Shown here: positions 5,686 through 64,000 of the stretch, one piece after another
How positions within the stretch are numbered: position 1 is the stretch's first letter
Layout: each line of letters starts with the position of its first letter
From: an uncultured Spirochaetota bacterium
GTDB lineage: Bacteria > Spirochaetota > Spirochaetia > SZUA-6 > Fen-1364
Length of the DNA stretch: 64,000 nucleotides
Assembly: GCA_963781885.1 (NCBI GenBank)
Contig: CAWAHW010000003.1
Location: 160,627-224,626 of the forward strand
Direction of reading: 5' to 3'
Translations under genes and position numbers: made by a program
The notes under the pieces: generated by a model
Seen by the model: only the letters and a program-made list of their open reading frames with translations
Database searches by the model: none
What the model was told of the DNA's origin: nothing

Positions 5686-5750
5686 CCAGAAGAGCAGCGA
5701 TCTGGCGTGACTCCTTGTAATGCAAGGAGCTGCGTTTGGCCCAGGAGCGG

Positions 5751-5986
5751 CCGCGAATGCCGCCAGGAAGAGGCCGGGCGAATGCCACGGAACCGCACGG
5801 AGCACCGTGCGAGCTACCGTGGCCGGGCGAATGCCACGGAACCGCACGGAGCACCGTGCGAGCTACCGTGGCCGGGCGAATGCCACGGGGTACCGTGGCC
5901 GGTGTGGCCGGTGTGGGCGCAGGGCGGCGTTTCTGCTACAGTCAACTCCGCGGGATACCGCGGCCGCTTCCTGGCGGCATTCGCGG
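5751..5986. repeat. 236-bp intergenic element: 26-bp terminal inverted repeats enclosing 49-bp tandem repeats
   Basis: CCGCGAATGCCGCCAGGAAGAGGCCG (5751-5776) is the reverse complement of 5961-5986 with 1 mismatch; identical 49-bp units at 5772-5820 and 5821-5869 plus a partial third. Confidence 0.85.
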
Positions 5987-48138: not shown

Positions 48139-49858
48139 CTACTCGGACAAAGCTGCCTGAGCGCGGAGCAAGTCATGCAAGGTCACAACGGCCATGATTT
48201 CCTGCGTCGATTCACGCCGAATCAGGACCATTCCCGAGGTGCTTTCCATCAACAGAGACGCCACTTCGCGAACGCTGACCTCGGGAGCACACAGGATAGG
48301 CGGGGAAAGCCGCGGGGCCAGATTCGCGGCGAGAGCGGCTTTCAGCTCTTGGCGGCTGACGACGCCACGGAGCTCGCCATTCACGACCACTGGAAATCGC
48401 CCGTACGGATACGATTCAAGCGTCTTCTCTATTGTCAATCGTTCCAGGTTGGACAAGACAATAGGGCGTGTATGCGCGATCTCGGACACCGGAAGCTTTT
48501 GCCAGCTCTCCAAGTCCCTTGGGGGTTTGATTTGAATGAGCTCATGTCCATCCTGCAGAAGAAGGGCATCGTAAAAATTGTGCCGACCGCCGAGCCGGGC
48601 AATCGCCTGGCTCACGATTGAGCAGAAGAGGAGCGCTGGGACCATCGAGAACTGGTGAGTCATCTCGAATACAATCAACAGCGATGTGAGGGGAGCGCGA
48701 ACGACAGCGTTGAAGCACGCGCTCATTCCTACCGCCGCGAGCACGATCTTATCGGCGGGCGAGAGTGGGATCCATAGTCCAGCAACTCCCGCGAGAAAAA
48801 AGCCGGTAAGACCCCCGAGAAAAAGGGTGGGAGAGAATATCCCTCCGCAACCGCCCCAACCGTATGAGGCGACGGTTGCTACGAACTTGGCAACGACAAG
48901 CAGGCCCGCAGCCTGCCAGAGCAGGCTGTTGGTGAGGGCAAGGGAAAGATCGTTATAGCCAAGGCCGAACACGCCCGTGTGACCTGTGGCGAAAAAGACC
49001 GCACAGCCAAAAAACCAGGTAATAAGCGACCCGCAGAGGGGACGGATCCAAGCGGGCAGCCGGCTTCGCTCTCGTACGGCCGCGCGCAAACGAAGTGTCA
49101 AATCCTGGAACGCCACGCCGATAAGCGATGCAACCGCCGCAACGACTGGCAGGATCACGTACATCAGCCACGTGACTCCGTCGACTACCGGAAGTGAAAA
49201 CGCCGGTTGGGAGCCGAGGAAAGCCTGCACGATAAGTGCGCCAAGAACGGACGCAAGGACGACGCTTCCCAGAACCCGGCTGCCGAACTCATTGTTGAGC
49301 ATTTCCTCCATGACGAAGGTTATGGCAGCAAGCGGCGTATTAAATGCGGCGGCAAGTGCCGCGGCTGCACCGGTAGCAGAAGGTCAGCCGGCGGCCGGTC
49401 TTGGGGACCCCAAAAGCCGCCGCGAGGCCCGATGCGACGCCCCCTCCCACGTAGACCGAAGGTCCTTCGCGGCCAAGGCTCGTGCCGCCTCCCAGTGTGA
49501 GGACTCCGCCGATGAACTTTACGATGACGGAACGAATTCGAATGAAACCCAACTCCTTCCAATAGGCGGCCTTGAGTTGGGGCACGCCGCTGCCGGCCGA
49601 CTCCGGGCTCACGACATTCATGAGAACGCCGGCGGCGAGGGACGTACAACTGATGACGCCGAGGCTTCCAAGGACAAATACCAGCGGAGAGCCCATGGCA
49701 AGCTGAAGGATGGTCGCACGGAAAAGGAGGTTGGTGAGCCAGAGGAAGGCCACTGCGGACCCGGCGGCAGCCGCTGCATACAAGAGTGTATTCACTATCC
49801 CCCGGCTGTTCTCCGGTATTTGACGAAAGGATGACAGGGAGAATCTCATTGCCACCAT
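48139..49858 (-). CDS. ClC chloride channel/H+ antiporter with CBS domains (frameshift near 49385)
   Basis: GSGVP, LGREGP, GGIFSPTL, RAPLTS, C-terminal CBS pair. Confidence 0.88.
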
Positions 49859-50547
49859 CTAGACAGATGCAGGCCGCAGTGGCAACAAAGATAGAATCGT
49901 GTTGCTTGAGCCTTGTCTGCTGTCGACACAGGCGACCGCCTCGTGATGAGGCCTTTTCTGGCCAGTGCATGCATATTGGCTTGCATTGTACTCGTTCATA
50001 AATGGCTGCGAGTCATTAGTTTACCTGCATCAGTGTCGAGGAAATTCGACGCGGCGGGTATCGGATGTTGCCTCCAAAGATGACCGGAACATCAATTGCG
50101 AGCAATGTATATGGAGCCTTGCCCCGAAAAGAACCCAGCGCTGCCTACTGTTACCCGACTCCTTGCCGTTATGCTTCATGACCGCCGCCTTTTTGCTGTT
50201 TCCATTATCCCCATACGCAACGTACGGATTGCTGCTGGAGCCAATCGACAATGAGCCCGCGCATGGCTGCGCTGCCCGGCCTGTATAAGAAGGCATTACG
50301 GCTTCTTGCAGGCCAGGATTGAGCAACAAACAAACGTTCGATGTTGACAGAGGTACTTCCCTTGTGTGGGGATTGTAGAATGAAACGTACCACGTGCTGC
50401 AGCGGCGGAATTAGGAATACCGATCTTGGCGCATGCCCAATCTCCCGATGGACTTTTCTGACAATCCATCTGACAGCGAGTTGAGAACGCGCCCGTTTTC
50501 GGGTGGCGATCTGGCGTAACTCCTTTTATAGAATAAGGAGTTGCTTT

Positions 50548-50590
50548 TGCCCCAGAGATGACTCGAACATCCGACCTACGGTTTAGGAAA
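50548..50590 (-). repeat. att core copy 1: 3' half of tRNA-Arg(CCU)
   Basis: Minus strand TTTCCTAAACCGTAGGTCGGATGTTCGAGTCATCTCTGGGGCA = anticodon loop (CCT), T-arm GGATG-TTCGAGT-CATCT and acceptor 3' strand; no 5' half. Confidence 0.88.
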
Positions 50591-50814
50591 ACGAATCCGA
50601 ACCGATCAGGTGCGCGTCTCTCTGCAACTCATTGCAAGCTATTGTAAGTCCTTACAAGGAGTTGGGTCAATCAGATTCTCTCGCGACGTCGGTCATCTTG
50701 TCACAGCTTGCATCTACTTGCAGCAATTAACCCAATTCATCTTATATCTTTTATCTCATACCCAAGCCGAGGTGGAAGGCCGTCGATGGGACATGAGGTC
50801 CTCCTTCGTCGGGC

Positions 50815-51552
50815 TCAATTTTCTCCGGGTACGCGAGAGTCCTTGCCATGCTCTGCCGAATTCGTGGGCGCCTTCTTCAACATCTCAAGACCAACCGAGC
50901 GACACTGCGACACTACCGCGTGCCAGTCATTCCACGGGGAAATGATGCCCTTGTACTCTCGCAGATCGACGTCTGTCAGGTCGTATGGATCAGGATTCGC
51001 GAGCTTCACGAGGACGGAAATGAGGATGTCGCCTGCCTCACCTGCGAACTCTGCGTAGAGGCGTCGCATCGGCTCTATCGCAGCGACGCTTCGCGGCTTC
51101 CCCAGGTGATGGGACAGGGCAGCAACATCGAGGTAGTCCCGGGTCGCGTTGCGCTCGACCATCAGGAATGCCTTGATTCGCAGCATTTCCTCGATCGTAG
51201 GGATCTTTAGTGTTCGCCCGCCCGGCGCCTTGAGCGACGTAGTCTCCAACGGAGCCGACCGCCTTTGGTTCCGCAGCCCGGCATCAATGCCGTCAACCTC
51301 TCCCAGCAGGAGCTTTCCCCGAATTCGCCGTTTAGTGCGCCAGCCGACGATGGACTCCAATGCGGTATTTGCCTCATCGAAATGCTTGCCCAGGTCCCTC
51401 AAGACATGGTCGTGATCGAAAGAAATGCGATGCCCCGCATGCAGTGCCGCCGCAGTACCTCCCACCAGAACGGCGCTCGGCACCTTGGCCTGCAGAAGAG
51501 CAGCATGCGCGAGCAGCTTCTCCCAATCGGAGGATTTCGCCGGCTCAGCCAT
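50815..51552 (-). CDS. Nucleotidyltransferase toxin, AbiEii/AbiGii-like
   Basis: VLVGGTAAALHAGHRISFDHD, PTIEEMLRIKA, RNATRDYLD. Confidence 0.8.
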   Translation of the reverse strand: MAEPAKSSDWEKLLAHAALLQAKVPSAVLVGGTAAALHAGHRISFDHDHVLRDLGKHFDEANTALESIVGWRTKRRIRGKLLLGEVDGIDAGLRNQRRSAPLETTSLKAPGGRTLKIPTIEEMLRIKAFLMVERNATRDYLDVAALSHHLGKPRSVAAIEPMRRLYAEFAGEAGDILISVLVKLANPDPYDLTDVDLREYKGIISPWNDWHAVVSQCRSVGLEMLKKAPTNSAEHGKDSRVPGEN

Positions 51553-52020
51553 GAGCGGCAGCGATCCTGCGCCTCTTCACTGCGCCGGAAAGCAAAGTGG
51601 AGAAGGTGCGCACGCGCACGTCTGACCTGTCGGAACCGGCCATCAGGTCGCGTGCGCGGCGGGCGAGGCGGCCGCTTGTATCTTTCTGAAGCGCGCGTAC
51701 CACGCCACGCCATGAGTCGAGATCCCCCGAAGGACGATGTCTTCGATTGCCGCTTTTGTGAGTTCTCTGGAAGCTGGTTCCGTCAGGTGTCGGTGGGGAG
51801 TCAACGGCTTCTCCAACATCAATGGCCGTGCTTCGAGCACGAGGTCGACGGCATCACAGATCCTGGCCACCTTCTCATAGCCGAGTTCCGCGAGCTTGCC
51901 AGCCTCCAGAGCGGCGAGAGTCGAACGGCCGACCTGCGCTTGGGCGGCTAGCGCGCTTAACGTCAGGCCGCGGGAACGCCGCCGCTCCGCGACGATCTTC
52001 CCGACCCCATGTAGGTTCAT
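51545..52020 (-). CDS. XRE-HTH antitoxin candidate (frameshift in a G-run near 51725)
   Basis: RRRSRGLTLSALAAQAQVGRSTLAALE; adding one G gives IEDIVLRGDLDSWRGVV...AAAHG*, overlapping the toxin start by 8 bp. Confidence 0.75.
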
Positions 52021-52028
52021 AGGTCCAT

Positions 52029-52060
52029 TATACTGGACTCTTCCGCGGAAGTCCAGTATA
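52029..52060. promoter_or_regulatory. Inverted repeat operator of the TA operon
   Basis: TATACTGGACT-N10-AGTCCAGTATA immediately upstream of the antitoxin start. Confidence 0.7.
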
Positions 52061-52120
52061 TGAGACTATGGCGTCGGGAACGATGACCGGTACAAATGCC
52101 ACGGAATGCCGTGGCCGCTT

Positions 52121-52163
52121 TGCCCCAGGGATGACTCGAACATCTGACCTACGGTTTGGGAAA
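52121..52163 (-). repeat. att core copy 2 (tRNA-Arg 3' half, diverged)
   Basis: TGCCCCAGGGATGACTCGAACATCTGACCTACGGTTTGGGAAA; 3 differences from copy 1. Confidence 0.85.
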
Positions 52164-52246
52164 GCGAGTCGGCGTCGAGTTTCGGCGTGTCGCTTTACAG
52201 CTCACTGCTGACTAACAGTATTCGCTTCAAGGGGTTGGGTCTATAA

Positions 52247-53537
52247 CAGGGTGTTGAAGAAGTTCTTGTTGGAGAAATCATTATCTCCTCAGCGGTGCTA
52301 TTTGGGGTCCTCGATTGCGGATCAGAAATTGGGGCCATTGTGGGCTTGGCCCCGTTTGGCCTCTACACGGATAGCTGAGCCGACAGATTGCGGATTCGGA
52401 CCATATTGTAGACGGCCATGGCAAGAGTGAATCCCCAACCGACGCGTTGTACCCCACGGAAGCGAGTCTTTCGATATCCTCCGACGGTCTTCATCCAGCC
52501 AAAGATCTCTTCCACTCGTTTGCGAACGCGCTGACTGATCACATAGCCTTCGCAACGAACGGTGCGTCCATCAACGGCGGAATGATCCTTGCGCTGCGCA
52601 ACGTGGGGAGTAGCGTTCAGCTTACGCAACTCCTTGACACAAGATCTTCTGTCGTAGCCCTTGTCCATGCCAACGGTAATGCGGTAATTGCCCGGGATCG
52701 CTTTCACCATCTCCACGGCCGCCTCTGGCTCGGCGCTACCGCTGCTGATGCTCAGGCGATGCTCCACCACCAACCCGTTGCGGTTTTCCATCAGCAGGTG
52801 GCCCATATAGCTCAGCCGTGCTTCCCCTCCGTGGCTCTTCTTTGACAGCCGTGCATCGGGGTCCGTCGTCGAGGCGTGTGTCTCGTTGCTCCTCTTTTCT
52901 CCGCGGTAGTCAACATCTGCGTTGCGACCGTTTTCGCCACTTGTTGGTCCCGAGGGTCCTCCCTCTTTCGGCTGGAAGCTCTTTTGAGATGCCCAGGCTT
53001 CAATGAGTGTCCCGTCGACAGTGAAATGCTCATCAGACAGCAGCCCCTGCTCTCGGGCCTGCTCCCTAATCTGGATAAAGAACTTCGCCACGATGTCCGC
53101 GTTCAGCAGCCGATCCCGATTCTTGGAGAATGTGGAGTGGTCCCAGAACCTCGTCTTCCATCGACAGTCCGACGAACCAGCGGAACAACAGATTATAGTT
53201 CAATTCCTCCATCAGTAGCCTTTCACTGCGGATGGAGTACAACACCTGGAGCAACAGCGCCCGAATGAGCTTCTCCGGCGGAATCGATGGCCGACCGGTA
53301 GCGGAATACATCTTGTTGAAATCTGCCGACAGTCCCTTCAAAGCGCGATTCGCCATTTCCTTTACCACCCGTAGCGGATGTTAGACGGCACACGGTCTGC
53401 AGGTGAGTGATAACTAAAGATGCTGTCTTGTTCCTGATTCGCGCCTCTCATCGACTCCCTCCCTGGAAATCCTGCTTCACAAGATTACCAAGGAACGAAG
53501 CCTTACTCAATGAAAAGCTGAGTTTTTCAACACCCTG
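52247..53537 (-). mobile_element. IS5 family insertion sequence
   Basis: Terminal IRs CAGGGTGTTGAAGAA / CAGGGTGTTGAAAAA; 4-bp TSD ATAA (52243-52246, 53538-53541). Confidence 0.92.
52363..53451 (-). CDS. tnp: IS5 family DDE transposase (frameshifted)
   Basis: GRPSIPPEKLIRALLLQVLYSIRSERLL, TVDGTLIEAWAS, GMDKGYD, RKRVEEIFGWMK. Confidence 0.9.
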
Positions 53538-53736
53538 ATAAGCATCCGCTGGAGAATTGCTTCTCGTAGATTGGTTTGGATCAATTTGCAGAGAATTGCG
53601 GATTTTTCTCACATCTTTTATCTGACACTGCATCCCGCGATTTCTTCCCTATCAGACTAGTTTTGCGGACAATCGGTGGTCGGCTGGAAATCCGGCTCGC
53701 CGATGTCTGTGATTGCCGAATAACTGTGCGTGATGG

Positions 53737-54105
53737 TTATCTCCCCCTCGCCCAGCGACGATACGCTTCAATCCACTGTGCCCCTTCAGGTCGAGGGAAT
53801 GGAAGGGAAAGGTCCAGTAATGGGATCCTCTGCTTTTCTATGCCTCTGGAACAAACCACAACAATCTCCCCCGCGTCATTGAGCTCGACTTTCTGCACAT
53901 TGACCTGGATGCCGAGCACGGTGGTCGAAAACGGGAGGCGAAGATTCTCCTCGACCCTAGTAAAAAGACCCATCGCTTGCTCGCTTTCATTGTAGCAGTC
54001 GACGATTGCCTCTGAGATCATTCGCTCAAGACGAGAGGAAGACGTTGGGCTACGTGGGCTACTCGACCCTTGACGTATACGCTTCAGGTTTTTTCTTTGT
54101 TTCAT
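53737..54105 (-). CDS. Conserved small protein ('Calcium binding' PF11535-like)
   Basis: EAIVDCYNESEQAMG..EENLRLPF...QRIPLLDL...WIEAYRRW. Confidence 0.65.
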   Translation of the reverse strand: MKQRKNLKRIRQGSSSPRSPTSSSRLERMISEAIVDCYNESEQAMGLFTRVEENLRLPFSTTVLGIQVNVQKVELNDAGEIVVVCSRGIEKQRIPLLDLSLPFPRPEGAQWIEAYRRWARGR

Positions 54106-56440
54106 TGTTATCCTCTACGCGGACGTACCCCATCGCCCGATAGCCACGGAGACGCTTTTCGAACATCCGAAGAAGCATTGGGACTTTTCGGTCAACGTAG
54201 TCGTATATCCGCACCTCTGTCTTGCCGGCATACAGACGATGGAGACGGCCCGAGTACTGAATCAGCGTCCCTTTCCACGACACCGGCAGGGCGAGAAACA
54301 AGGTGTCCAATCGTGCGTCGTCGAATCCTTCTCCTATGTATCGCCCTGTCGCAAGGAGAAGCCGCGGCTTGCCGTCGGGCGCCGTGGCGAAGTGTGCAAG
54401 CGCCTCGCGCCGCGTCGACGTCTTCATTGTTCCATGGAGCACGACAAGATCCGGAACGTACGCACGCAGCTCTTCAGCCAGTTTTTCAAGGTGCTCGCGC
54501 CGCTCCGTGAGCACGATCGGGGAGCGCCCGTCTTTAAGGGCTTGGATTACATCTTTGCAGATGAGATTATTGCGGGCCTGATCGGCCGCCAGCATCGAAT
54601 AGAGCTCATGGATCGTGGTTCGCTCGGTCTGCTGATTAATCACAAAATCGGTTTCACGGACGATGAGAGACTGTACAAATGGGCGTTGTGCGTTCTTGCT
54701 TCGTGAATCGACAGCGAACCGCGCAGGACCGAGCTGCATATGGATGATGGGTTGCTGGCCGTCCCGGCGACGTGGAGTTGCAGTAAGCCCAGTAACAAAC
54801 CTTGCCTTCACTTCCGAAAGCACGCGCTCGAAGGAAACGGCAGGGACGTGGTGGCACTCATCCACGATGATGTGTCCATAGCCAGCCACGAGGTCGGCTA
54901 CGCGGCCGAGGCGAATCAGGCTTTGCATCATCGCCACGTCGACCTTGCCAGTAGGTCTGTTTCTCCCGGAACCGATTTGCCCGATTTCCTTCGGTTCTTT
55001 GCCCAGGAACAAGGCAAGTTGTGCGACCCATTGATCGAGGAGAGGCTTCCGGTGAACAAGAACGAGCGTATTTCGGTGCCGCATGGCGATCAGAAAGATC
55101 CCTACGACGGTCTTGCCAGTCCCCGGAGGTGCCACCAGGACGCCTATGTCGTGAGCCAGCAAAGCCTTTGCAGCCTGTTCTTGACTTGAGGTGAGAGTGC
55201 CCGTGAAAGAGCAATCGAGCGCGGCTCCCTCCTCGCGCTTGTCCGCGACCGAAAGGGGGATGCCATACTCGTTCAACAGGGCCTCAACCTCGGGCCGGCA
55301 CCCACGAGGCAGGGCGATGTGCTCGGAGAGCTCTTCGGCACATGCAATAACCCTGGGCGTGAGTGCGGTAGAAAGCCTCATGCCCTGCCTCTTGTAGAAC
55401 TCCGGATTCTGGAAGGCAGCCAGACGCTTGATCTGGTTGAGAAGAGGAGAGGGTAGGCCGTTTCGTTCAAGAAACAAGCGTTGAGAAATGGTGGCGTGCA
55501 CTTCGCGCGGAAGGGTCTCGTTTATGGACACCCGTTCCGAGTAGCCCGATGGAGGTCGTTTCCACGGAGTCTGGTCAGATTCCTCCTCGGCATCGACCAT
55601 TCGCAGTCCCATAACCTTGCCGCGACGGCCAGCGTCTTGGACGATTTCGTGAACCCTATTCAAATCGATGGGCTGGATGCTCGATATAAAAACCCACTGG
55701 TCATCGTAAGGAGTGAATGATGCATCAACAAATACCGAATTGCCTTTCGTCCTCGCTTCCCGTTGAAGGGGAAGGGCAATGAGGTTTCCGAAGCCACCTT
55801 TGGGGAGCGTATCCTGGTTTGGGAAGAGTCGATCGTAGGACGACATCGAAAGTTGGTGGCGACGAACCATGGTCTCGGTTATCAGGAAACACCCCAGATT
55901 CCTCGCGAGGCTGGAGGAGACGGGTTCGGAGAAGAAGAGCCAGGCGTGAGCGCCTTTACCAGACCGCGATCGTTCGATAGCGACGGGAACATCGTATGAA
56001 CGACACGTCTCACGGAACGAAGCGACATCTTCCTGCCACGCGCCTTCGTCGAAATCTGCGGCAAGAAACCAAGACGTTTCGTCGGCAAGAAGCGGATATA
56101 CCCCCATGACTTGAAGGCCTTTGAGATGCTTCTCTATTTCTTCATCGGTGACGCGAAAGAACGCATGCTGACAGCGCGAAAACATCCTCTCGGCCGCGAA
56201 ACAGCGAGCGAAACATCCGCACTTTCTCTTCGCTTGAGAGCGTTGCCGTTGTCGAAGTTGCGCCTTCGTCAAGCGTAGTCGGTCGGTCGGCACGTGGCTC
56301 AATAGCTGCCAACTGCTCTTTGAAAGAGGAAACAAGGGCACGGCGGTGTTCGAGTCAGCATGGATTTCTGAAATGGTTGTTCTTCCTGAACTATCTTTTC
56401 GGCGAGTGTTCGACGTTTCTCGTCGTCGCTATGGCTATCG
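54059..56440 (-). CDS. TOTE-type archaeo-eukaryotic primase fused to SF2 DEAH helicase; damaged N-terminus
   Basis: GVYPLL..FLAADFD, ERSRSGKGAHAW, DRLFPNQD..GFGNLIALPLQ; APPGTGKT, IIVDECHH, GLTATP, QYSGRLHR. Confidence 0.85.
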
Positions 56441-56494
56441 CTCAACTATGCTCACCTGTCTGCGCGAGGCGGAATCGATCCTCTGACAATCACT

Positions 56495-56863
56495 TCAGCT
56501 CGATCGTGAGTGACCCCTCTTCGCAAGCCGCGTGGGTCTTCTGGACGAGGAAGGCGACTTAGAGCGTCGCAAAGGCTTGTTGGGCAGTGCCCTAGCGGTT
56601 TCCGCTGCAACCCGCTCCGCCAGATAGACCTTGAGCAGCGACTGATACGGCACATCACGCTTGTTGGCCAGGCGCTTCAAGTCCGCGAGAAGCTGAGCCG
56701 GAAGCCGTAGGGAGATTGTGGAAGTGGACAGCTTGAGGTTCGGAAACTGGGTGACCTCTGCCCTCGACCAGTCCAGGTAATCAGCCGTATCGTGCTCTTC
56801 CCAAAAGGTGCGTTCTTCGGCTTCTGACTTGAACTCAGGCACTGGTTTGCGTGCGCTTGGCAT
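56495..56863 (-). CDS. BrnA/CopG-like antitoxin
   Basis: PEFKSEAEERTFW..HD, TISLRLP, KRDVPYQSLLK. Confidence 0.88.
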   Translation of the reverse strand: MPSARKPVPEFKSEAEERTFWEEHDTADYLDWSRAEVTQFPNLKLSTSTISLRLPAQLLADLKRLANKRDVPYQSLLKVYLAERVAAETARALPNKPLRRSKSPSSSRRPTRLAKRGHSRSS

Positions 56864-57161
56864 AGATCCCCCGTTCTCGCCGGCTCATGGGCCGGCCTGA
56901 AATAACTCGCAGCAACGAGCCGCGGACAGTGAAAACGACAGTTAGTTGGCGACCAGAGTCGGCGCGCCCCAGCGCCACGAACCTCCGTTCCAACTTGGAA
57001 TGGTCCTCGTCAAAGCTTACGACAATCGGTCGATTGAGGAATACCTGCTCGCACTCAGCCTGGGACACCTCATGTCTCACCCAGGTCTTTTCGGAGTTGC
57101 CTTCATCCCACTGAAAGCCTTCAAGACTTTCAAAGAACTCGTCGAGCAGGCTCACATGCAA
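56835..57161 (-). CDS. BrnT family ribonuclease toxin
   Basis: FQWDEGNSEK..RHEVS..ECEQVF, HSKLERRF, LRVISGR; TTGACA(57190)-17bp-TATACA promoter. Confidence 0.9.
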   Translation of the reverse strand: MHVSLLDEFFESLEGFQWDEGNSEKTWVRHEVSQAECEQVFLNRPIVVSFDEDHSKLERRFVALGRADSGRQLTVVFTVRGSLLRVISGRPMSRRERGIYAKRTQTSA

Positions 57162-57419
57162 TGTATACGATGAACATATACACTTGTCAACTCAAGAGAG
57201 CAGGCAAAGACCGCCATTCCAGCGGCTGGCGTGGGCGCAGACAGACAGAAGCGCTACGGTTTTGGCAACCGGCGGAAGTTGCAACTATATGGAACAACTT
57301 GGAATGGCATAGCGCCTCAGGCGCCACTTCTGTTGGCTTTCTGACATTTTTTGTCTCACAGGATTCCAAGTGCAAAAGAAGGTCCTGGCGCGATTCTTCT
57401 TGGAATAGGGAGTTAATTT

Positions 57420-57462
57420 TGCCCCAGAGATGACTCGAACATCCGACCTACGGTTTAGGAAA
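57420..57462 (-). repeat. att core copy 3 (identical to copy 1)
   Basis: Same 43-mer as 50548-50590; homology with copy 1 extends about 57385-57633 versus 50511-50760. Confidence 0.9.
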
Positions 57463-58031
57463 ACGAATCTCAACCGGTCAGGTGCGAGACTCTCTGCAAC
57501 TCATTACAAGCTATTGTAAGTCATTACAAGGAGTTAGGTCAATTAGGATCTTGCTGCATCGTTATCGTCCTTGTACGGACTTGCACTTACTTGCAGCAAT
57601 TAGCAGAATTTATCTCATATCTTTTATCTCATAGTGTGGTCGGCCAAGCGCCAACCATCCACGTCGGGTTCGCACTTTCCTGCGGCTCAAGAGAAGCGGG
57701 GGATGGGAAGTCCGTATGCGCATGCACCTGCAACGGGCCCGGGCGCATGGTTGGGCAGGCGCAACGTCCGCTGTGGCAACAAGAAGAGAAACGCGGGAAT
57801 GGGCCCTCCGACTTGATGGGGTCTACGGGAGCCGATCTCCCCGCCGAGCCTTCTGTCGCGGGGCAGCGTTCTTGCTCGGGATTCGGGCAGCGGCTGCGCG
57901 AATCGCCCTGCCAGCTCTTGCGGCGTGGACAGATGCCTTCGTACGGATCGTCGGCTTCCTCGTCACTATCTTCGCAGTTCCGGCTCTGCTTGTGATTGTC
58001 GAAGATCAGTTGAGGCTGTATTCTCAAGGAG

Positions 58032-58355
58032 ATGGGTGACACGCTTCAGCGCGTCCGTGAGCTCGCTCGTGCCGGCACGGTGAAGATCTCGGAACATGGA
58101 TACGATGAGTTGGCTGCCGATGGAATCTCCGCACGAGAAGTAGTGGAAGGGCTTCAGGATGCTCTTCAGATAGAGGAGTATCCGTCTTTCGCCAAAGGGC
58201 CGTGCGTCCTTGTTCGTCAGAGAGACAAGAAAGGGAACGCCGTCCATGCCGTCTGGGGCATCCCCAGGAATGAGCTTTCTCCGGCAGTTCTGATCACCGC
58301 ATATCGGCCTGACCCTGAACGTTGGGCTGACGACTTTTCCAGGAGGATGAAATGA
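58032..58355 (+). CDS. DUF4258 domain putative toxin
   Basis: KISEHGYDEL..DGI, IEEYP, VHAVW, VLITAYRPDPERW. Confidence 0.82.
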   Translation: MGDTLQRVRELARAGTVKISEHGYDELAADGISAREVVEGLQDALQIEEYPSFAKGPCVLVRQRDKKGNAVHAVWGIPRNELSPAVLITAYRPDPERWADDFSRRMK

Positions 58356-58564
58356 CGACACGCAAGCGGACCAAGATCGTTCGTGAAGGCAAGTATGTTG
58401 CGGAAGTCGATGTAGAGCTTCTGGAAGACGAGACTGGTTGGTCGCCTTATCTTTCCTTGGACGATGCGTACAAGCTCGATGATGTAAGGGAAGCCTTGCG
58501 GCGGGGCGATATCACCGCAGCCTTGCGATCTTCGCGCGTGTTCTCCTTGACCCCGGTGTCGTGA
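58352..58564 (+). CDS. Putative antitoxin partner of DUF4258
   Basis: ATGA coupling; EGKYVAEVDVEL...WSPYLSLDDAYKLDDVREALRRGD. Confidence 0.75.
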   Translation: MTTRKRTKIVREGKYVAEVDVELLEDETGWSPYLSLDDAYKLDDVREALRRGDITAALRSSRVFSLTPVS

Positions 58565-58715
58565 TATTCGATGCAGGCGCAATGCGAGAAGGAAGACCGT
58601 CCTGAGGTGGCGCGGCACCGCCACCTATTGCAGTTTCTCACATCTTTTATCTCATAGCGTCCGCGATCTTCCGGCGTTCAATCATGCAAATTATTACGGG
58701 ACTAAAAGTCACTTT

Positions 58716-58757
58716 TGCCCCAGGGATGACTCGAACATCTGACATACGGTTTAGGAA
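58716..58757 (-). repeat. att core copy 4, adjacent to integrase
   Basis: TGCCCCAGGGATGACTCGAACATCTGACATACGGTTTAGGAA. Confidence 0.85.
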
Positions 58758-58911
58758 TGAGGCGTTGCCCACCTAACGCTTATGCTCCGTGACTCCAATC
58801 TCCAACTGCCTTCCTGCATCCGGCTCTATTGTTCCTGCACTTCACTCCAGCGCCCATTTGTGATACTGAAGCACCTGTGTCTTCAGCATCGTCTCCAGAT
58901 AGGATCAGCGA

Positions 58912-60051
58912 ATGAGGTATCACAAGCCCTACACACTCTATGGGCGGCGGCTTGGGAACGGGCATCGAGTCTGGTATGTCCGCACCTACGAGGCTGACGG
59001 AGGGCGCACAGGAGGGAGAAGCACAGGGCAGACAAGCAAAGCCCTTGCCCACCAGGTTGTTGCTCGACTCATCAGAGACGGTCGCCTCGGTCAGCCTGCG
59101 CAAGAAGCCACCTTCGAGGAATACGCCGCTGACTGGTGGATGTGATCGCTTCCCCTATGTGCAGAGCCGCTTGATGCGTGGCAGGGTGCTGACCCAGAAA
59201 TATGTCGAGAACCAGACGGGAGTATCTCACCAACCACATTCTGCCCGTGTTCAAGGACGATGAAACTCTCGTCGATCCGCCCCTCCCATATCGAGCAGTG
59301 GCTTCAAGACCTGCGGCAAAGCGGGATGTCAGGGTCGGCGATCAATCACTGCCATTCCGTCCTGCGGACGATGTTGTGCGAGGCGAAGCGGCTGCAGTTG
59401 ATCTCCTCCAACCCAATCGTCGATGTGCGTCCTGTGTCCTACTCGGCACCGAGCAGAGACGATCCTCACGCTCGAGGAAGCAAAGCATCTTCTCGATGAG
59501 AGCAAGGTCAGTCGAACTCTGGGCAGACGAGATGACATACACCGCTAACCTACTCGCTGCCACCACGGGGATGCGACAGGGAGAAGTCCTTGCGCTGCGG
59601 ATCGAAGACATCCACGAGGGATACATCACCGTCTGCTCATACCTGGGATTCTCGCTATGAGGGGTTCAAGCCCACGAAGACGAAGAGGATCAGGGAGATA
59701 CCGATCACTGCCAAGACCGCCAAGTGGCTTGCTCGAATCACCGCAGGTCGTCCGTGCGGGTTCGTCTTTTCAACTGGTGGGGAGCGCCCCATCTACTACA
59801 AGGACATCACTCGTTCGCTCTATACGGCACTGGAACGGATCGGCATCACGGAGGAGGAGCGGCAACGGAGGCAACTAAACTTCCACGCTTGGCGGCACTT
59901 CTTCAATAGCACTCTTAGGGGGAAGGTGCCTGACCCGATCCTTCGCCAACTGACTGGGCACTCGACCGAGGCGATGACCGAGCATTACAGCCATTTCCGC
60001 CTTGAGGACTTCAAGCCTGTCGTGGAGATCGAGGAGAGCCTCGGGATTTAG
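58912..60051 (+). CDS. Tyrosine recombinase/integrase (several frameshifts)
   Basis: Arm-binding-like N-terminus VWYVRTY..GRSTGQT; TTGMRQGE; KPTKTK; FHAWRH; TGHSTEAMTEHY; spread over four overlapping ORFs. Confidence 0.85.
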
Positions 60052-60480
60052 TGGCTGTTGTCTGGTTCAAATAAAGCAGGATTGAAAAAGTGAATCTTGT
60101 CCGATTTTCTTTTGTCCCACCAATGGCATCCCATGTCGCCTCTGTCGCAATGTTGCCCATACTTTCTATCCTCACGGGAACCATCTCCCGCTCTGAATGT
60201 TATTGTCATTGCCCGGTCCACCGCCCTTCAATCTTACTTTGTCCCCAACCTTGAATGAGAAGGGCGGAAGATTTGGAGACGCTATCCTTTCAAGCGAAGC
60301 GGCAGGGAAAAATCCTATCTCCACGTCGAGTTTCTTATTGAACCACCGACACCCAACATCGCCTTTTCCGCAGTGCTGCCTGTATTTCCGATCCAGAACA
60401 GAGCCATCCCCAGGAATGAAAGCCACTACCATCTGTTCGCCGTTGATTTTCATTACATCGCCGACCTTTATTTCTGCCAT
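60048..60480 (-). CDS. Tandem YodC/DUF2158-like domain protein (frameshift near 60215)
   Basis: KVGDKVRLKGGGP(A)MT; two copies of GDGSxxDRKYxQHCxxGDxGCxW after frame correction. Confidence 0.65.
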
Positions 60481-60663
60481 ATGAGGAAGTGTGGAAAGTG
60501 GGTTCGGTATTGTCAAGCGAATCTCGGGGCGAAGGTAGTAGAACTCCGCAGCCCCGTCTCTAACGCCTGCCGCCCCGCTCTGCAGCGGCTCACACCGCAC
60601 AGGGCGATGAGCGATCTAAACTCAGGCACTTCTGGATGATATGATCGCAACCGAGGTGGAGAA

Positions 60664-61233
60664 ATGAGATTGCCTCTTCCTGCCAAGAGCGACACCCAAA
60701 ACGCTCTACACGAAGCAGGACACGCAGTTGCTGGGTATACGATGGGGATTCCAATAGAACAAGTCAGCCTTATCCCCGAAGAACAGGGAGAGGTGGGCTA
60801 TGTGCGGTTTTCGCCCGATTACAATCCGCAGGACGCCTCCAAGCGTGTTGAGATTTTCATAGTGAACTTCGGCGGATACGCCGCAGAGAAGAAGGCTGGC
60901 TATGAAGACCTTTCTGGATGGCAGCACAACGACGGGGGAAACCTTGAACGCTGCATACCAGAACTGATCAGGCGAGGTGTCGTTAGAGAAGGCAACGAGA
61001 TCGCCTTCCGTCGATGGCTGATGCGAGAAGCCTGTGCGGTAATGGATGAAAACTGGGCGACTGTCCAGAAGTTTGCCGAGGTTCTGAAAGAAGAACGCCA
61101 AATGACAGGTCGAGAAACAGAGCGGTTGTGCGAGAAACTTGGGGCGAAGCGACGAACCGATAGCACTCTTCTTTACCGATGGCTTGCCGAACAGGGCAGG
61201 CGAGAAAAGGCAGACCCACCATGCAGCCCTTGA
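60664..61233 (+). CDS. Stand-alone peptidase M41 (FtsH protease domain)-like protein
   Basis: ALHEAGHAVAG, GGYAAE, ENWATVQKFAEVL. Confidence 0.75.
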   Translation: MRLPLPAKSDTQNALHEAGHAVAGYTMGIPIEQVSLIPEEQGEVGYVRFSPDYNPQDASKRVEIFIVNFGGYAAEKKAGYEDLSGWQHNDGGNLERCIPELIRRGVVREGNEIAFRRWLMREACAVMDENWATVQKFAEVLKEERQMTGRETERLCEKLGAKRRTDSTLLYRWLAEQGRREKADPPCSP

Positions 61234-61338
61234 CTTCAGCCGCCGCTCGGCTCTATCACTCCCTGAATCGTGAAGTGGAAGCACTAAGTTTTGCTCACCC
61301 TGCTGACGCCCTCCCTCCTTCACGAAATCGAGGGGGAG

Positions 61339-61704
61339 ATGACAGACAATCACCCAGTGATCCTCGTTGCTGACGACGATGAGACGATCCGCAGAATAAT
61401 AACGCTTCTGCTGACACGGGAGGGGTATAGCGTCATCACCGCACGTGACGGCAAAGAAGCGTTGGAACTCTCACGGCAATGCAGCGGGAAAATCGAAGTG
61501 CTCATCAGCGACATAGAAATGCCCCACCTCGACGGAGTTGAGCTCTGTGCCTGTCTGCTCCATGAGCGACCAGAAACCAAAGCGATGCTGATAACAGGGG
61601 CTAACGCCGAGAAAGCACGCTACTCGACTCTACCAGTGCTTCTCAAGCCATTCTCGATGGAGACGCTGATCGCCAAAGTGAGGGAGGTCTTGGCGGCTTC
61701 CTGA
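61339..61704 (+). CDS. Single-domain response regulator receiver
   Basis: ILVADDD, LISDIEMPHLDG, LLKPF. Confidence 0.9.
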   Translation: MTDNHPVILVADDDETIRRIITLLLTREGYSVITARDGKEALELSRQCSGKIEVLISDIEMPHLDGVELCACLLHERPETKAMLITGANAEKARYSTLPVLLKPFSMETLIAKVREVLAAS

Positions 61705-62175
61705 GCCGCCCGACAGCCCGCTTACGAACCCTGGCACCAGCGGCTGTTCCTCACAGAAGGAGAGTTCCAGGGAAAAGCATTTGAGTATAGGATCAACCAT
61801 CAAAGGGAGAATGAAAATGACGAAACTCTTGGTCTTGAATGAAGAAGCAAAGGAAGAACAGGACGCCGACAAGATTCGGGTAGGCAAGATCGGATGGCTT
61901 GCTGACTTCATCGAGAACGACGGGGTGGGCGATCACGGATACTACCTCGAAGAAGGAAAACTCATCGAGAGACCGGACTATTGAATGAGGTGATGAATTT
62001 CAACTCAAACCGGAACATCAAGGGCGAGGACTATCACGCAGCGAGTCAGCAAGAGATCGCAGAGTTCCGAGCGGCGGAAAAAGTCCTGGCGAGACCTCAG
62101 CCTCGCTCCTAACATCCCCCAGACGGCACTCCTCGAATTTGGAGAAAACGCCCTGGGATGGTACAAAAATCAGTT

Positions 62176-62345
62176 ATGACAATGGCAGTTGCCAACACGC
62201 AGACGACGATGCCCCTCACTGACCTCGTTCTCATCGAGCCGGAGACCTCCCAGCCGACCCAGAACCCTGCTGCCGTCTATTTGGCGGCGCTGGCAAAGAC
62301 GGGACGCAGAGCAATGGCGGGGCAACTGCGGTGGGTCGTCGGAGT
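62176..62345 (+). pseudogene. Tyrosine recombinase N-terminal remnant
   Basis: QNPAAVYLAALAKTGRRAMAGQL resembles the N-terminus of a Cre-like integrase family. Confidence 0.5.
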
Positions 62346-62375
62346 GAGGATCAGGAAAATCGGAGTAAAACAAAA

Positions 62376-62926
62376 ATGAGGCGCCACTTTCCAAGTGAAG
62401 CAAAGCATTCTGAACTCCTTACAAGGTTTTTAGGGGTAAATGACAATATCAAGGACGTAAAGGAAAGCCAATGGAAGGTTGCGTATTATACAATCCTTTT
62501 CTTTGCCGCCGTGGTCGGTGCCTATCAACTCGATGTCGTAGTCCCCCTGGTTTTGGTTCTGCATTCTGAAAGGGGTGACCGTTTTTGTAGTTATACTTGT
62601 GGCGTTCTTCGCCGTCCGTCATCTTTATATTGAACAGCAACATCTAACGCTCAACCGAATATCTGCTCAACATGTCGACGACTATCTGAATCGCCTGACC
62701 GGCGTTGCCCGGAGATCTGGGGAGAATGCGAACAACCGATTACGAAAAATGGCTTTTGGGTCAACGCCATTTCAAGAAACTGAAAGGAAAGTTGATCGAC
62801 AAGGAAAGACGCCACAGGGTATTTGATACCTTCTACGGCTACCTATTCCCTTCGATCATCGTCGGCGCTGCGATAGCAACCATCGTGATAGTGGGTCTGG
62901 ATAACGTTTTCGACAAGACCAAGTGA
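62376..62926 (+). CDS. Low-GC membrane protein (frameshifted)
   Basis: Three hydrophobic segments over three overlapping ORFs. Confidence 0.5.
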
Positions 62927-63135
62927 TGTTTCCCGATGAAACAACCGGTTCAGTTTGTTGAGAAACCACAAGAGGTAATGGATCGTATAGTGTCAGCCCT
63001 ACGGACACTGCGTAACCGTCAAAAACAACCACACCCCTGTGTGCGTAGCCGCGTAAACGCTAAATAAACCGCACCTACCGCCAGCGTTCGGAGGATGGCA
63101 TCTTTGCCCGAGCAATCGATCAAACGGAGGCAAAG

Positions 63136-63438
63136 GTGAAGTCCCAGAAGCTGGAGCTTTGGAAAAGACGACGCGATGCATTCCAAAAGAGCGGGTCAAC
63201 GCGGCGGGCTTTCTGTGCGAAGAATCATCTGAAACTATCAACCTTGGACTATTGGTTTTCGAGGGTCCGCGAGGTAGAGAGGTCTGAAGGACTGGTTGAA
63301 TTGAAAGCCCAAGGGATTGCAGCCGTGAAGAGCTGCCTTGAGGTGGTCGTCGCCGATAGATACCGCATTGAAATACGGGACGGTTTCAACGCCCTGCTAT
63401 TCGCGGAGCTGATCAAGGCTCTGGAGAGCCTGGGATGA
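63136..63438 (+). CDS. tnpA: IS66 accessory protein TnpA
   Basis: SGSTRRAFCAKNHLKLSTLDYW. Confidence 0.85.
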   Translation: MKSQKLELWKRRRDAFQKSGSTRRAFCAKNHLKLSTLDYWFSRVREVERSEGLVELKAQGIAAVKSCLEVVVADRYRIEIRDGFNALLFAELIKALESLG

Positions 63439-63782
63439 TCCTTGATTGGACAAAGGTCAGGATGTTCGTGAAGCCCGGGGCTACTGACATGCGAAAGCAA
63501 ATCAACGGCCTTTCGATGCTCGTCTCCGATGAGCTTCACATGGATCCATTTGAAGGAAACCTGTTCCTCTTCTGCAACAAGCACAGACGCATTCTGAAAA
63601 TCATCTACTGGGACAAGAACGGTTTCTGCCTGTGGCTAAAGCGCCTGGAGAAGGACAAGTTCCCCTGGCCGACAAATCAGACGGAGGCAGCAGAGATTAC
63701 CGGCGAGCAGTTGGGCTTTCTGCTGCAAGGTATTGATTTCTGGCACGCTCACAAAAAGTTGGATTACCGACAGGTTTCCTGA
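63435..63782 (+). CDS. tnpB: IS66 accessory protein TnpB
   Basis: TDMRKQINGL, LFLFCN, KIIYWDKNGFCLWLKRLE. Confidence 0.95.
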   Translation: MILDWTKVRMFVKPGATDMRKQINGLSMLVSDELHMDPFEGNLFLFCNKHRRILKIIYWDKNGFCLWLKRLEKDKFPWPTNQTEAAEITGEQLGFLLQGIDFWHAHKKLDYRQVS

Positions 63783-63840
63783 TTTTCTCTTGCAAAACCA
63801 TTGACCTCTTTCATTGTGCTCTGTTACAGTTCAGCGCGTC

Positions 63841-64000
63841 ATGGGGGAGGAACCGGTCATCTTGCCTGCGGATGTCCAGGGGCTTCAGCAACTGGTTGTC
63901 CGCCTTCAGAATGAAGTCTCTTTCCTCAGCAGCAGAGCCACTGTGTTGGAGGAAGAGCTGAGGCTTCTTCGCCACAAGATCTTCGGCCGTCGAAGCGAAC
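63841..64000 (+). CDS. tnpC: IS66 transposase TnpC, N-terminus (runs out of window)
   Basis: Manual translation LPADVQGLQQLV...LEEELRLLRHKIFGRRSE. Confidence 0.88.
   Translation, partial: MGEEPVILPADVQGLQQLVVRLQNEVSFLSSRATVLEEELRLLRHKIFGRRSE

Follow-up and report, generated by a model that had tools for sequence, protein, structure and literature searches.

The window analysed here, 64 kb of DNA that form the end of contig C3 in the assembly of an uncultured Spirochaetota bacterium (G000; 7 contigs, 4.64 Mb), contains a series of small toxin-antitoxin and defence cassettes that lie between copies of the 3' half of a tRNA-Arg(CCU) gene. We propose that islands targeting that tRNA half have built up an array by tandem accretion, that this region is its distal and best-preserved part, and that the cassettes in it are non-autonomous units that have lost their integrase; we give this reading a probability of roughly 70%. 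The preliminary description of this DNA had seen in it an integron-like array, stacked and shuffled by one neighbouring integrase. The observation behind it is real, and its wording of integrase-less cassettes on tRNA-derived attachment (att) sites is right; its interpretation is partly supported. Indeed, that discrete units sit on tRNA-derived att sites is borne out by conserved arms and by recurrence across species, but the units look like deletion derivatives instead of parts of a purpose-built cassette system.

The window was compared with 20 other genomes of the genus, all of them metagenome-assembled genomes of uncultured Spirochaetota, with one genome per species. The 61 loci collected from these relatives form, together with the window, the set in which core sites were counted.

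Four copies of a tRNA-Arg(CCU) 3' half bound three cassettes

A repeat search recovered the four direct copies of the tRNA-Arg(CCU) 3' half that had been reported to start at 50548, 52121, 57420 and 58716, and gave the core a length of 44 nt. In 51-nt frames that begin at 50539, 52112, 57411 and 58707, the copies are 82-96% identical to the reference copy; the frames are spaced by 1573, 5299 and 1296 positions. On the minus strand the core runs from the anticodon loop (TT CCT AA) through GGGGCA, that is, to the discriminator base, and its copies are 93-98% identical to the tRNA-Arg(CCT) gene of contig C4 (44 nt, n=4). The genome-wide BLAST that the preliminary description had called for, run over 4.64 Mb, found the core only at the four array sites and in the C4 tRNA gene, a restriction that places the repeats far beyond chance. 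Thus, direct repeats of the 3' part of a tRNA gene bound each island, as in a tandem array.

The four copies, all on the minus strand and all established by repeat search and alignment (copy 1 also by BLAST), differ in their T-stem. Copies 1 (50548-50591) and 3 (57420-57463) are identical and carry a G..T variant. Copies 2 (52121-52164), in which the anticodon position is mutated to CCC, and 4 (58716-58759) carry an A..C variant, as does the resident tRNA. In the relatives, both variants occur, either as native tRNA or within arrays. Because the alleles alternate along the array, simple duplication of the resident tRNA does not account for the copies.

Far to the left, at 5697-5900 on the minus strand, the window holds a further decayed att remnant. 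Its parts follow one another as tandem GGCCACGG..CCGTGGC hairpin units, the final 7 nt of the tRNA core and a type-a P' hairpin, and the hairpin units resemble the opening of the P' arm of cassette A (described below). The adjoining stretch (4333-5685) is 87% identical to DNA of genome G015 that begins ~120 nt past an intact tRNA. The remnant and this likeness suggest that the array region may once have extended 45 kb further left.

Each cassette carries different cargo and no recombinase

The three segments between the copies (cassettes A, B and C) hold, as the preliminary description had stated, a different toxin-antitoxin or defence cargo each, which Pfam, NCBIfam and PADLOC support. In every case adjacent small genes match family models of type II/IV toxin-antitoxin systems (AbiE-like, BrnTA and DUF4258, respectively), apart from one partner gene in C. 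The cargo of cassette A (50815-52020, minus strand; Pfam) consists of a helix-turn-helix regulator of the XRE family (51643-52020) and an adjoining gene for an AbiEii-like nucleotidyltransferase (50815-51552), whose Pfam score of 24 bits is barely above the cut-off of 22.5. Cassette C carries, on the plus strand (58032-58564; Pfam), a DUF4258 protein (58032-58355; 52 bits) and an overlapping 70-aa partner without any family (58352-58564).

Cassette B is the largest (cargo at 53737-57161, minus strand; Pfam, NCBIfam and PADLOC). It encodes BrnT (56835-57161; 75 bits), BrnA (56495-56863; 110 bits for BrnA/CopG), an AEP-TOTE primase fused to an SF2 helicase (54059-56341) and a CcbP-like protein of 122 aa (53737-54105). 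The primase gene is without 127 nt at ~56175 that genomes G014 and G011 carry; its present start is an internal GTG, and the primase domain has lost its first ~50 positions. Moreover, an insertion sequence (IS) of the IS5 family (1291 bp, 52247-53537, minus strand; identified by Pfam and by the uninterrupted site in relatives) splits the P arm of B at a -35-like box. Its DDE transposase (52363-53368, minus strand) lies in two frames, 52363-53091 and 53066-53368. Metagenome contigs skip this insertion, with joints from 52224/52242 to 53538. These are Logan contigs from other organisms, the best run of which shared at most 0.33 of words with the window; we took from them only the IS5-less form of B's arm, and coverage was not counted as evidence. 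At position 53147, contigs of three metagenome runs are without one base that is present in the IS5 copy of the window, so the split transposase frame may have arisen by mutation of this copy or through an error in its assembly.

In agreement with the preliminary description, the three segments encode no recombinase: Pfam gave no Phage_integrase match among the open reading frames (ORFs) scanned, and tblastn with two integrases found none. The cassettes therefore have no integration or transfer genes of their own, their sole transposase being that of IS5, a later insertion.

The junctions share conserved arms and a dyad motif

Each junction consists of a conserved P arm of ~230 nt, the 44-nt tRNA half and then a P' arm. 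On the tRNA-proximal side of copies 1, 2 and 3 lies a homologous arm (92% and 67% identity to that of copy 1 over 149 nt). All arms lie on the minus strand. The type-1 P arm of A (50592-50770) has a promoter-like box, TTGACC-18-TACAAT (50641-50670), facing the core, and a dyad at 50740-50760; that of C (57464-57640) has its box at 57513-57542 and its dyad at 57613-57633 (repeat, promoter and motif scans for both). In B, comparison with relatives places the core-proximal part of the P arm at 52165-52246 and the distal part, on the other side of IS5, at 53538-53630, where a motif scan located the dyad (53607-53627). Cores are present on both sides of A, B and C, and each of the three has a P arm; the cassettes are thus flanked by the equivalents of attL and attR.

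The P' arms are more varied. That of A (52021-52120; alignment and promoter scan) starts with the hairpin GGCCACGG..CCGTGGC, followed by a promoter-like site of its own (TGGACT-17-TATAAT, 52027-52055) in addition to the one in each type-1 arm, and has no dyad. Those of B and C carry one. The P' arm of B (57195-57419, dyad 57340-57360) recurs in G011, where the same arm adjoins the intact tRNA. The P' arm of C (58600-58715, type b; alignment with z ~4.8, motif scan) has its dyad at 58636-58656 and a trace of an integrase start. Every P' arm begins with a hairpin directly after the tRNA 3' end, and this hairpin may be a terminator that the island supplies for the restored tRNA.

The dyad is a 21-nt motif, TATGAGATAAAAGATGTGAGA, built of TGTGAGA-like half-sites. 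With up to 3 mismatches allowed, the window contains it 4 times (0.00 expected); with up to 4 allowed, the whole 4.64-Mb genome contains it 5 times, always inside the array and on the minus strand. Its distance from the core is ~150 nt in the P arms of A, B (with IS5 removed) and C, and ~60 nt in the P' arms of B and C. The dyads are putative arm-type integrase sites. As for the promoter-like box, its ATTGAC is conserved in at least 90% of the aligned arm sequences.

Other origins or functions of the arms were considered. A structured RNA found no support, as the two Rfam matches had E ~0.9, far below gathering, and the RNAalifold consensus fold of 18 arm+core sequences contained only the tRNA T-arm, with 0 compensatory pairs. 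A small arm hairpin seen by eye did not keep a constant register across sequences. We could also speculate that the arm+core derives from a decayed tRNA gene; homology to a 5' half was not demonstrable, though the tRNA promoter aligns with the promoter-like box.

Integrases of two types and their remnants

The preliminary description had placed a full-length integrase past the last core copy and made it the driver of the array. This could not be upheld. The gene (58912-60051, plus strand; Pfam and tblastn) is a tyrosine integrase pseudogene with about five frame changes, whose N-terminal arm-binding part, catalytic Arg box and C-terminal His/Tyr part lie in different frames. It forms the end of a fourth island of another kind, which continues to the contig end. 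Moreover, it belongs with a different type of arm, since its closest resemblance (46% over the C-terminal part) is to the G014a type, the arms of which bear a different motif.

Two integrase types occur next to cores, namely the C4/G014b type of ~480 aa and the G014a type. The first is represented in G000 by an intact Phage_integrase protein of 484 aa that adjoins the true tRNA on contig C4. Every C4-type integrase next to a core has a dyad of TGTGAGA half-sites 20-40 nt upstream of its start codon, whereas the G014a type is preceded by a GTCAC-type motif instead. The type that has the cassettes' dyad half-sites in its own upstream arm is intact in G000 only beside the tRNA on C4. We infer from this shared motif that the cognate enzyme of the cassettes is the intact C4 integrase and not the pseudogene beside the array.

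A remnant of an older island of the same type lies at the left end of the array. The stretch 50324-50547 (minus strand; BLAST and tblastn) comprises a P' arm with hairpin and TGTCAGA dyad, and the first ~44-54 codons of a C4-type integrase, with a stop (stub at 50324-50437). Immediately left of copy 1, 220 nt share 91% identity with the sequence that separates tRNA and integrase on C4, and the global alignment scored 274, against 92 +/- 7 for shuffles. Thus, the array ends in the stump of a fifth island.

Among the relatives, integrases were sought in the 2.6 kb downstream of every core, by tblastn with three integrases and by Pfam on ORFs. Intact ones lie ~100 nt past the core on C4 and at two sites in G014; after the tRNA, G002 has an integrase ORF with a full Phage_integrase domain, and G008, G009 and G017 have integrases cut by contig ends. 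Some members of the family therefore carry a tyrosine integrase at the att site. C4-type integrases were found in 9 of the 21 genomes of the genus. The tRNA-adjacent integrases of G009:C29 and G008:C90 are 92% identical in protein to the C4 integrase, and the core flanks are 69-85% identical in DNA. Since the integrases are more alike than the flanks, the integrase-bearing island has been exchanged between species too.

Most members of the family are integrase-less

In 12 of the 20 other genomes, a search with the arm+core repeat yields 2-12 matches. The 63 core sites of the census comprise 19 inside intact tRNA-Arg(CCU) genes and 44 partial copies. A type-1 P arm accompanies 27 of the 44, and 24 of these 27 arms contain the dyad. 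Partial cores are followed by an intact integrase in 2 cases and by a truncated one (28 to 234 residues) in 6, with none detected at the other 36. An integrase comes directly after the tRNA in 5 of 19 tRNA loci. Among the islands of up to 12.2 kb with a core on both sides (n=13, the three of the window included), one has an intact integrase, one a 28-aa stub and 11 no trace of one.

Arms that resemble those of cassette C (C-type arms, with dyad and no integrase) occur at no fewer than 14 sites, five of which lie directly at a tRNA, and the cargo behind them is varied (DUF1214/DUF1254, an AbiEii module, an IS91-like gene, a DUF4143 ATPase and others). Arrays anchored at a tRNA exist in G018 and in G019, the latter with three islands (2.6, 4.9 and 4.35 kb). 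Content and order across relatives, which the preliminary description had wanted compared, are not fixed, as related units adjoin cores in other species at other positions and in other orders. Much of the cargo of the relatives consists of ordinary metabolic genes. In addition, no relaxase or conjugation gene turned up in two Pfam scans of related islands, one of 89 ORFs and one that took in 77 of the 104 ORFs with a length of 200 aa or more. The remaining 27 had already been scanned, were overlapped by a longer ORF, were a known integrase fragment or were two of locus L079, whose first bases after the core match those of L078.

These counts bear on the idea that the locus is a dedicated integron-like system, in which a tRNA and one integrase form a platform and minimal integrase-less cassettes, with an attC-like arm+core, are captured, stacked and reshuffled. 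It would account for the 11 of 13 bounded islands without integrase trace, for the single arm type shared by cassettes of unrelated cargo, for the integrase in 5 of 19 tRNA loci, for the frequency of toxin-antitoxin pairs and for the conserved outward promoter-like box that faces the next cassette. However, no IntI-type enzyme is present (the C4 integrase reaches 23.7 bits on the NCBIfam model integrase_gron, for which the cut-off is 265), an attI/Pc platform was not found either, and the site is a duplex-type core with arms and not a folded attC, as the RNAalifold result indicates. Cassette A has a promoter-like site of its own, the stubs and the arm homology show descent from ordinary integrase-bearing islands, and much of the relatives' cargo is metabolic. 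With every integron feature that we looked for missing (IntI, attI/Pc, attC), the likeness is one of analogy and not of membership, and we regard a dedicated system of this kind as very improbable.

Some single loci of the family deserve mention. On G007:C12 (L080 1-244), two cores lie ~150 nt apart with only a dyad-bearing arm between them, an 'empty' unit that adjoins a homologue of the cassette C cargo. An IS91-family gene (Zn_Tnp_IS91 / Y2_Tnp) stands behind the same integrase-less arm type in G014, G011 and G001 (82-88% identity; L032 5815-6945, L061 3249-4435, and L092). On G016:C10, a tRNA and an inverted second core lie ~19 kb apart (L078 3681, L079 3444) and are followed by the same first 34 bases, which points to an inverted duplication of the tRNA end. 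In G014, the tRNA 5' flank is present twice (contigs C2 and C26) and arrays occur on several contigs; this bin may mix two strains, or its tRNA locus may be duplicated. A gene for an MMPL transporter comes next after the tRNA in three members of the family, and in G022 it comes after the last core. It was rejected as the native distal flank of the array, its best match in G000 being only 34% identical.

The cassettes look like deletion derivatives of integrase-bearing islands

The arms themselves retain traces of this descent. The P' arm of C aligns with the C4 spacer between tRNA and integrase with a score of 128, against 94 +/- 7 for shuffled sequence; the alignment takes in the start of the hairpin, then the dyad and a trace of the earliest integrase codons, and the arm ends abruptly where the integrase starts. 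For the P' arm of B the match is weaker (111.5, with shuffles at 91.5 +/- 7). The B module (BrnTA, primase-helicase, small protein and P arm) occupies the P-arm end of islands of 4.0 kb in G000, 5.6 kb in G014 and 13.5 kb in G016, and the G016 island begins with a 126-aa integrase stub. On these alignments and comparisons, the cassettes look like deletion derivatives of integrase-bearing islands, eroded from the integrase end. The preliminary description had held that decayed integrase remnants would mark the segments as eroded full-size islands. Much of this was found, in the stump left of copy 1, in the stubs and in the arm homology, but the units also recur and seem to be transferred in integrase-less form.

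Units have also fused. In G018, the tRNA-proximal copy of cassette A ends inside the P-arm dyad and continues into the sequence that normally follows the P' dyad. The loss amounts to ~255 nt, comprising one core with its inner arms, and occurred by recombination between the P-arm dyad of one cassette and the P' dyad of its neighbour (L029 16551 on G018:C7 versus L024 10876 on G018:C8). Such recombination explains the larger islands without internal cores.

Cassettes are shared between species in integrase-less form

The core-genome flanks of ten relatives are 66-85% identical to G000, and several cassettes are more alike than that. Cassette B is 93.6% (2641 nt) and 95.0% (1024 nt) identical to sequence of G014, 90-92% identical to G016, and 91.7% (1941 nt), 94.9% (1304 nt) and 96.9% (1199 nt) identical to G011:C387. 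In G011, cassette B directly follows the intact tRNA and has the same integrase-less P' arm as in G000, although the tRNA 5' flank on that contig is only 66% identical. A shared integrase-less P' arm at 94.9%, next to a flank at 66%, argues that B was exchanged after the loss of its integrase. Cassette A is 85.8% identical to two copies in G018. These two are 99.8% identical to each other over 1515 nt, in surrounding DNA that is 86-89% alike; one adjoins the tRNA and the other lies between two cores on another contig, and their identity sets in at the core's anticodon-loop end, to within a few bases. Finally, over 838 nt the cargo of cassette C shares 90% identity with DNA that lies beside cores on G007:C12. 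From these identities, integrase-less cassettes seem still to move between related soil spirochaetes.

It is tempting to regard the array instead as a fossil, made of dead and fixed remnants that resemble those of other species because complete integrase-bearing islands were transferred earlier and then decayed in parallel. Integrase stubs are present, IS5 sits in B's arm, the primase has its 127-nt deletion, frameshifts disrupt the neighbouring integrase, G011, G018 and G019 yielded no cognate integrase, and a further decayed att remnant lies at 5697-5900, all as a fossil would have it. Still, the P' arm that B shares between G000 and G011 had lost its integrase before that transfer, and the two nearly identical integrase-less copies of A in G018 stand in different contexts within far more divergent surroundings. 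Moreover, several genomes have integrase-less arms with dyads, followed by differing cargo, immediately beside the intact tRNA, which is where the most recent arrival sits, and the arms are conserved about as much as the coding cargo. We therefore consider a wholly dead array unlikely.

Another route would dispense with integrases. Homologous recombination, for instance following the uptake of DNA, would swap cassettes between genomes and arrays, with the conserved ~270-bp arm+core modules and the tRNA gene as the stretches of homology. Over 130-230 nt these modules are 75-92% alike, and their cores hardly differ, the core lost in G018 between two 21-nt dyads shows that short repeats here do recombine, and cassettes are present in genomes where the cognate integrase was not found. 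The start of identity of the G018 copies at the anticodon-loop end of the core is, by contrast, what a site-specific crossover predicts, although a homologous crossover inside the 44-nt core would look identical. The fixed spacing of the dyads and their presence upstream of integrase genes likewise suggest selection for integrase binding. As a full account of the array, homologous recombination seems to us rather improbable, more so than a dead array and less so than a dedicated integron-like system.

How the array may work and what weighs against it

In the accretion array that we favour, the cassettes have autonomous relatives, in which a ~480-aa tyrosine integrase gene begins just past the P' dyad. 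Cassettes A, B and C would have lost this gene and most of their cargo by deletion and would have retained the sites needed in cis, making them non-autonomous, like cis-mobilizable elements (CIMEs). They would nevertheless still be moved between arrays and species, through an integrase acting in trans or from a neighbouring island, or by homologous recombination through the arm+core modules. Cassette C would be the likeliest to be mobile in G000, since both of its arms are intact; B is probably disabled by the IS5 in its P arm, and A has no P' dyad.

Several observations weigh against this account. The array is not connected to any tRNA in the assembly: the sole tRNA-Arg(CCU) gene (anticodon CCT, C4:712600-712673) is mid-contig on C4, 96 kb from the C4 end, and ARAGORN found no tRNA anywhere in the 64-kb window. 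Identity across species shows transfer, but not that an integrase moved the integrase-less form. Neither an excision product nor a circle junction appeared in the metagenome Logan contigs of related organisms. The C4-type integrase was not found in G011 (91% complete), G018 (72%) and G019 (96%), which nonetheless contain integrase-less islands. Stubs of either integrase type accompany type-1 P arms, so the pairing of arm and enzyme is not a strict one. In cassette A, the P' arm has no homology to the integrase-proximal arm. Promoter-like sites number 4 in the region against 3.5 +/- 1.8 in shuffles, which is not above chance and leaves sequence conservation as the support for the box. Finally, the cargo is damaged (IS5, the 127-nt deletion, frameshifts), as decay predicts.

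Two apparent rearrangements in the metagenome contigs were rejected. A joint from 57466 to 52196, which goes back 5271 with 28 other letters between, was not accepted as a circle, nor were skips between P arms accepted as deletions. Such joints and skips are best read as the arm of a relative mapped across the repeated arms. Joining the ends of contigs C4 and C3 was likewise rejected, the two ends having no repeat in common.

Features around the array

To the right, the fourth island contains, beyond the integrase pseudogene, a fragment of an M41-like peptidase, a response regulator and an IS66 element with TnpB and the start of TnpC (60172-64000; Pfam). Contig C3 terminates inside this element, 5.2 kb beyond core copy 4. 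To the left of the array lies a ClC chloride-channel gene with CBS domains (48139-49858), split into ORFs 48139-49311 and 49340-49858 by a frameshift or an assembly error; its orthologues in relatives do not adjoin arrays. Elsewhere in G000, a weak integrase-like stretch at C4:788197 has no adjoining core. Near the end of C4, and near contig ends of C5 and C6, a ~111-nt repeat forms clusters, with dozens of copies that are 84-95% alike.

Significance and comparison with known systems

On a conservative reading, the locus is a well-resolved case of island decay, in which integrases are lost from the tRNA-proximal end, arms are kept and units fuse through the arm motifs. If the cassettes truly moved in trans, they would represent a second, independent route to integron-like arrays, built from ordinary tRNA-site integrases and stripped-down islands, and would reveal a means by which genes for toxin-antitoxin systems and defence travel among uncultivated soil bacteria. 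We could speculate further that in this genus from soil and peat the tRNA-Arg(CCU) locus is a cassette platform and that the minimal cassettes with their ~270-bp modules (arm with dyad, outward promoter and tRNA half) are the main evolving lineage, captured, stacked, fused and exchanged between species by a tyrosine integrase supplied in trans, as a functional analogue of the integron that uses attP x attB chemistry. This bolder idea is, for now, doubtful. In any case, the locus offers a defined candidate arm-site motif together with its candidate integrase, which can be tested at the bench.

Chromosomal integrons, such as those of Vibrio, hold arrays rich in toxin-antitoxin cassettes, each with a conserved recombination site, and one enzyme serves many of them. 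The region described here similarly has arrays of small cassettes with a conserved end site, common toxin-antitoxin pairs and no integrase in the cassette. In contrast, no IntI, attI or Pc was found, the site is not a folded single-stranded attC, and the cassettes bear promoter-like sites and descend from autonomous islands. The P4-like islands, in which a tyrosine integrase lies beside a tRNA, share with the present family the crossover segment from the anticodon loop to the 3' end, the replacement 3' half and an integrase directly downstream of the restored tRNA; unlike them, most members here are without any integrase.

The closest parallels lie among tandem islands. In the part of the account given in PMC5704250 that concerns them, CIMEs have lost their integration and transfer genes and kept attL and attR, and tandem arrays are built by accretion, in a scenario of three steps. 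As in the ICESt1/ICESt3 family comprising integrative and conjugative elements (ICEs) as well as CIMEs of Streptococcus thermophilus, as that part of the account presents it (PMC5704250), integration genes are lost here, att sites are kept, units stand in tandem at the 3' end of the target gene, and growth is by repeated site-specific integration. The present family differs in that no conjugation or mobilisation genes turned up in the islands in our Pfam scans, so descent from ICEs or from integrative and mobilizable elements is not demonstrated. In addition, its units are far smaller (1.3-4 kb, with one toxin-antitoxin pair), and one arm type occurs genus-wide with many different cargos.

The islands of Dehalococcoides, in the portion of PMC3146451 that deals with their structure, stand in tandem downstream of the single-copy ssrA gene and are bounded by direct repeats of its 3' end; 16 have an integration module and 15 have none, the latter being suggested to be cis-mobilizable. 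They share with our array the tandem arrangement at a small-RNA gene, the 3'-end repeats and extra conserved sequence beside the repeat. As that portion describes them (PMC3146451), their integrase is of the serine type within a six-gene module, their repeat is 20 bp of the tmRNA gene, and their cargo is reductive dehalogenases, whereas the present family has tyrosine integrases, a 44-nt tRNA half with ~230-nt arms, and toxin-antitoxin, defence-type or miscellaneous cargo. Our literature search found no description of such a family in Spirochaetota, which is not proof of absence. Thus, the kind of element is already known from CIMEs and tandem accretion, and what we describe is a miniature, genus-wide variant of it, in which integrase-less members predominate, in a different host phylum.

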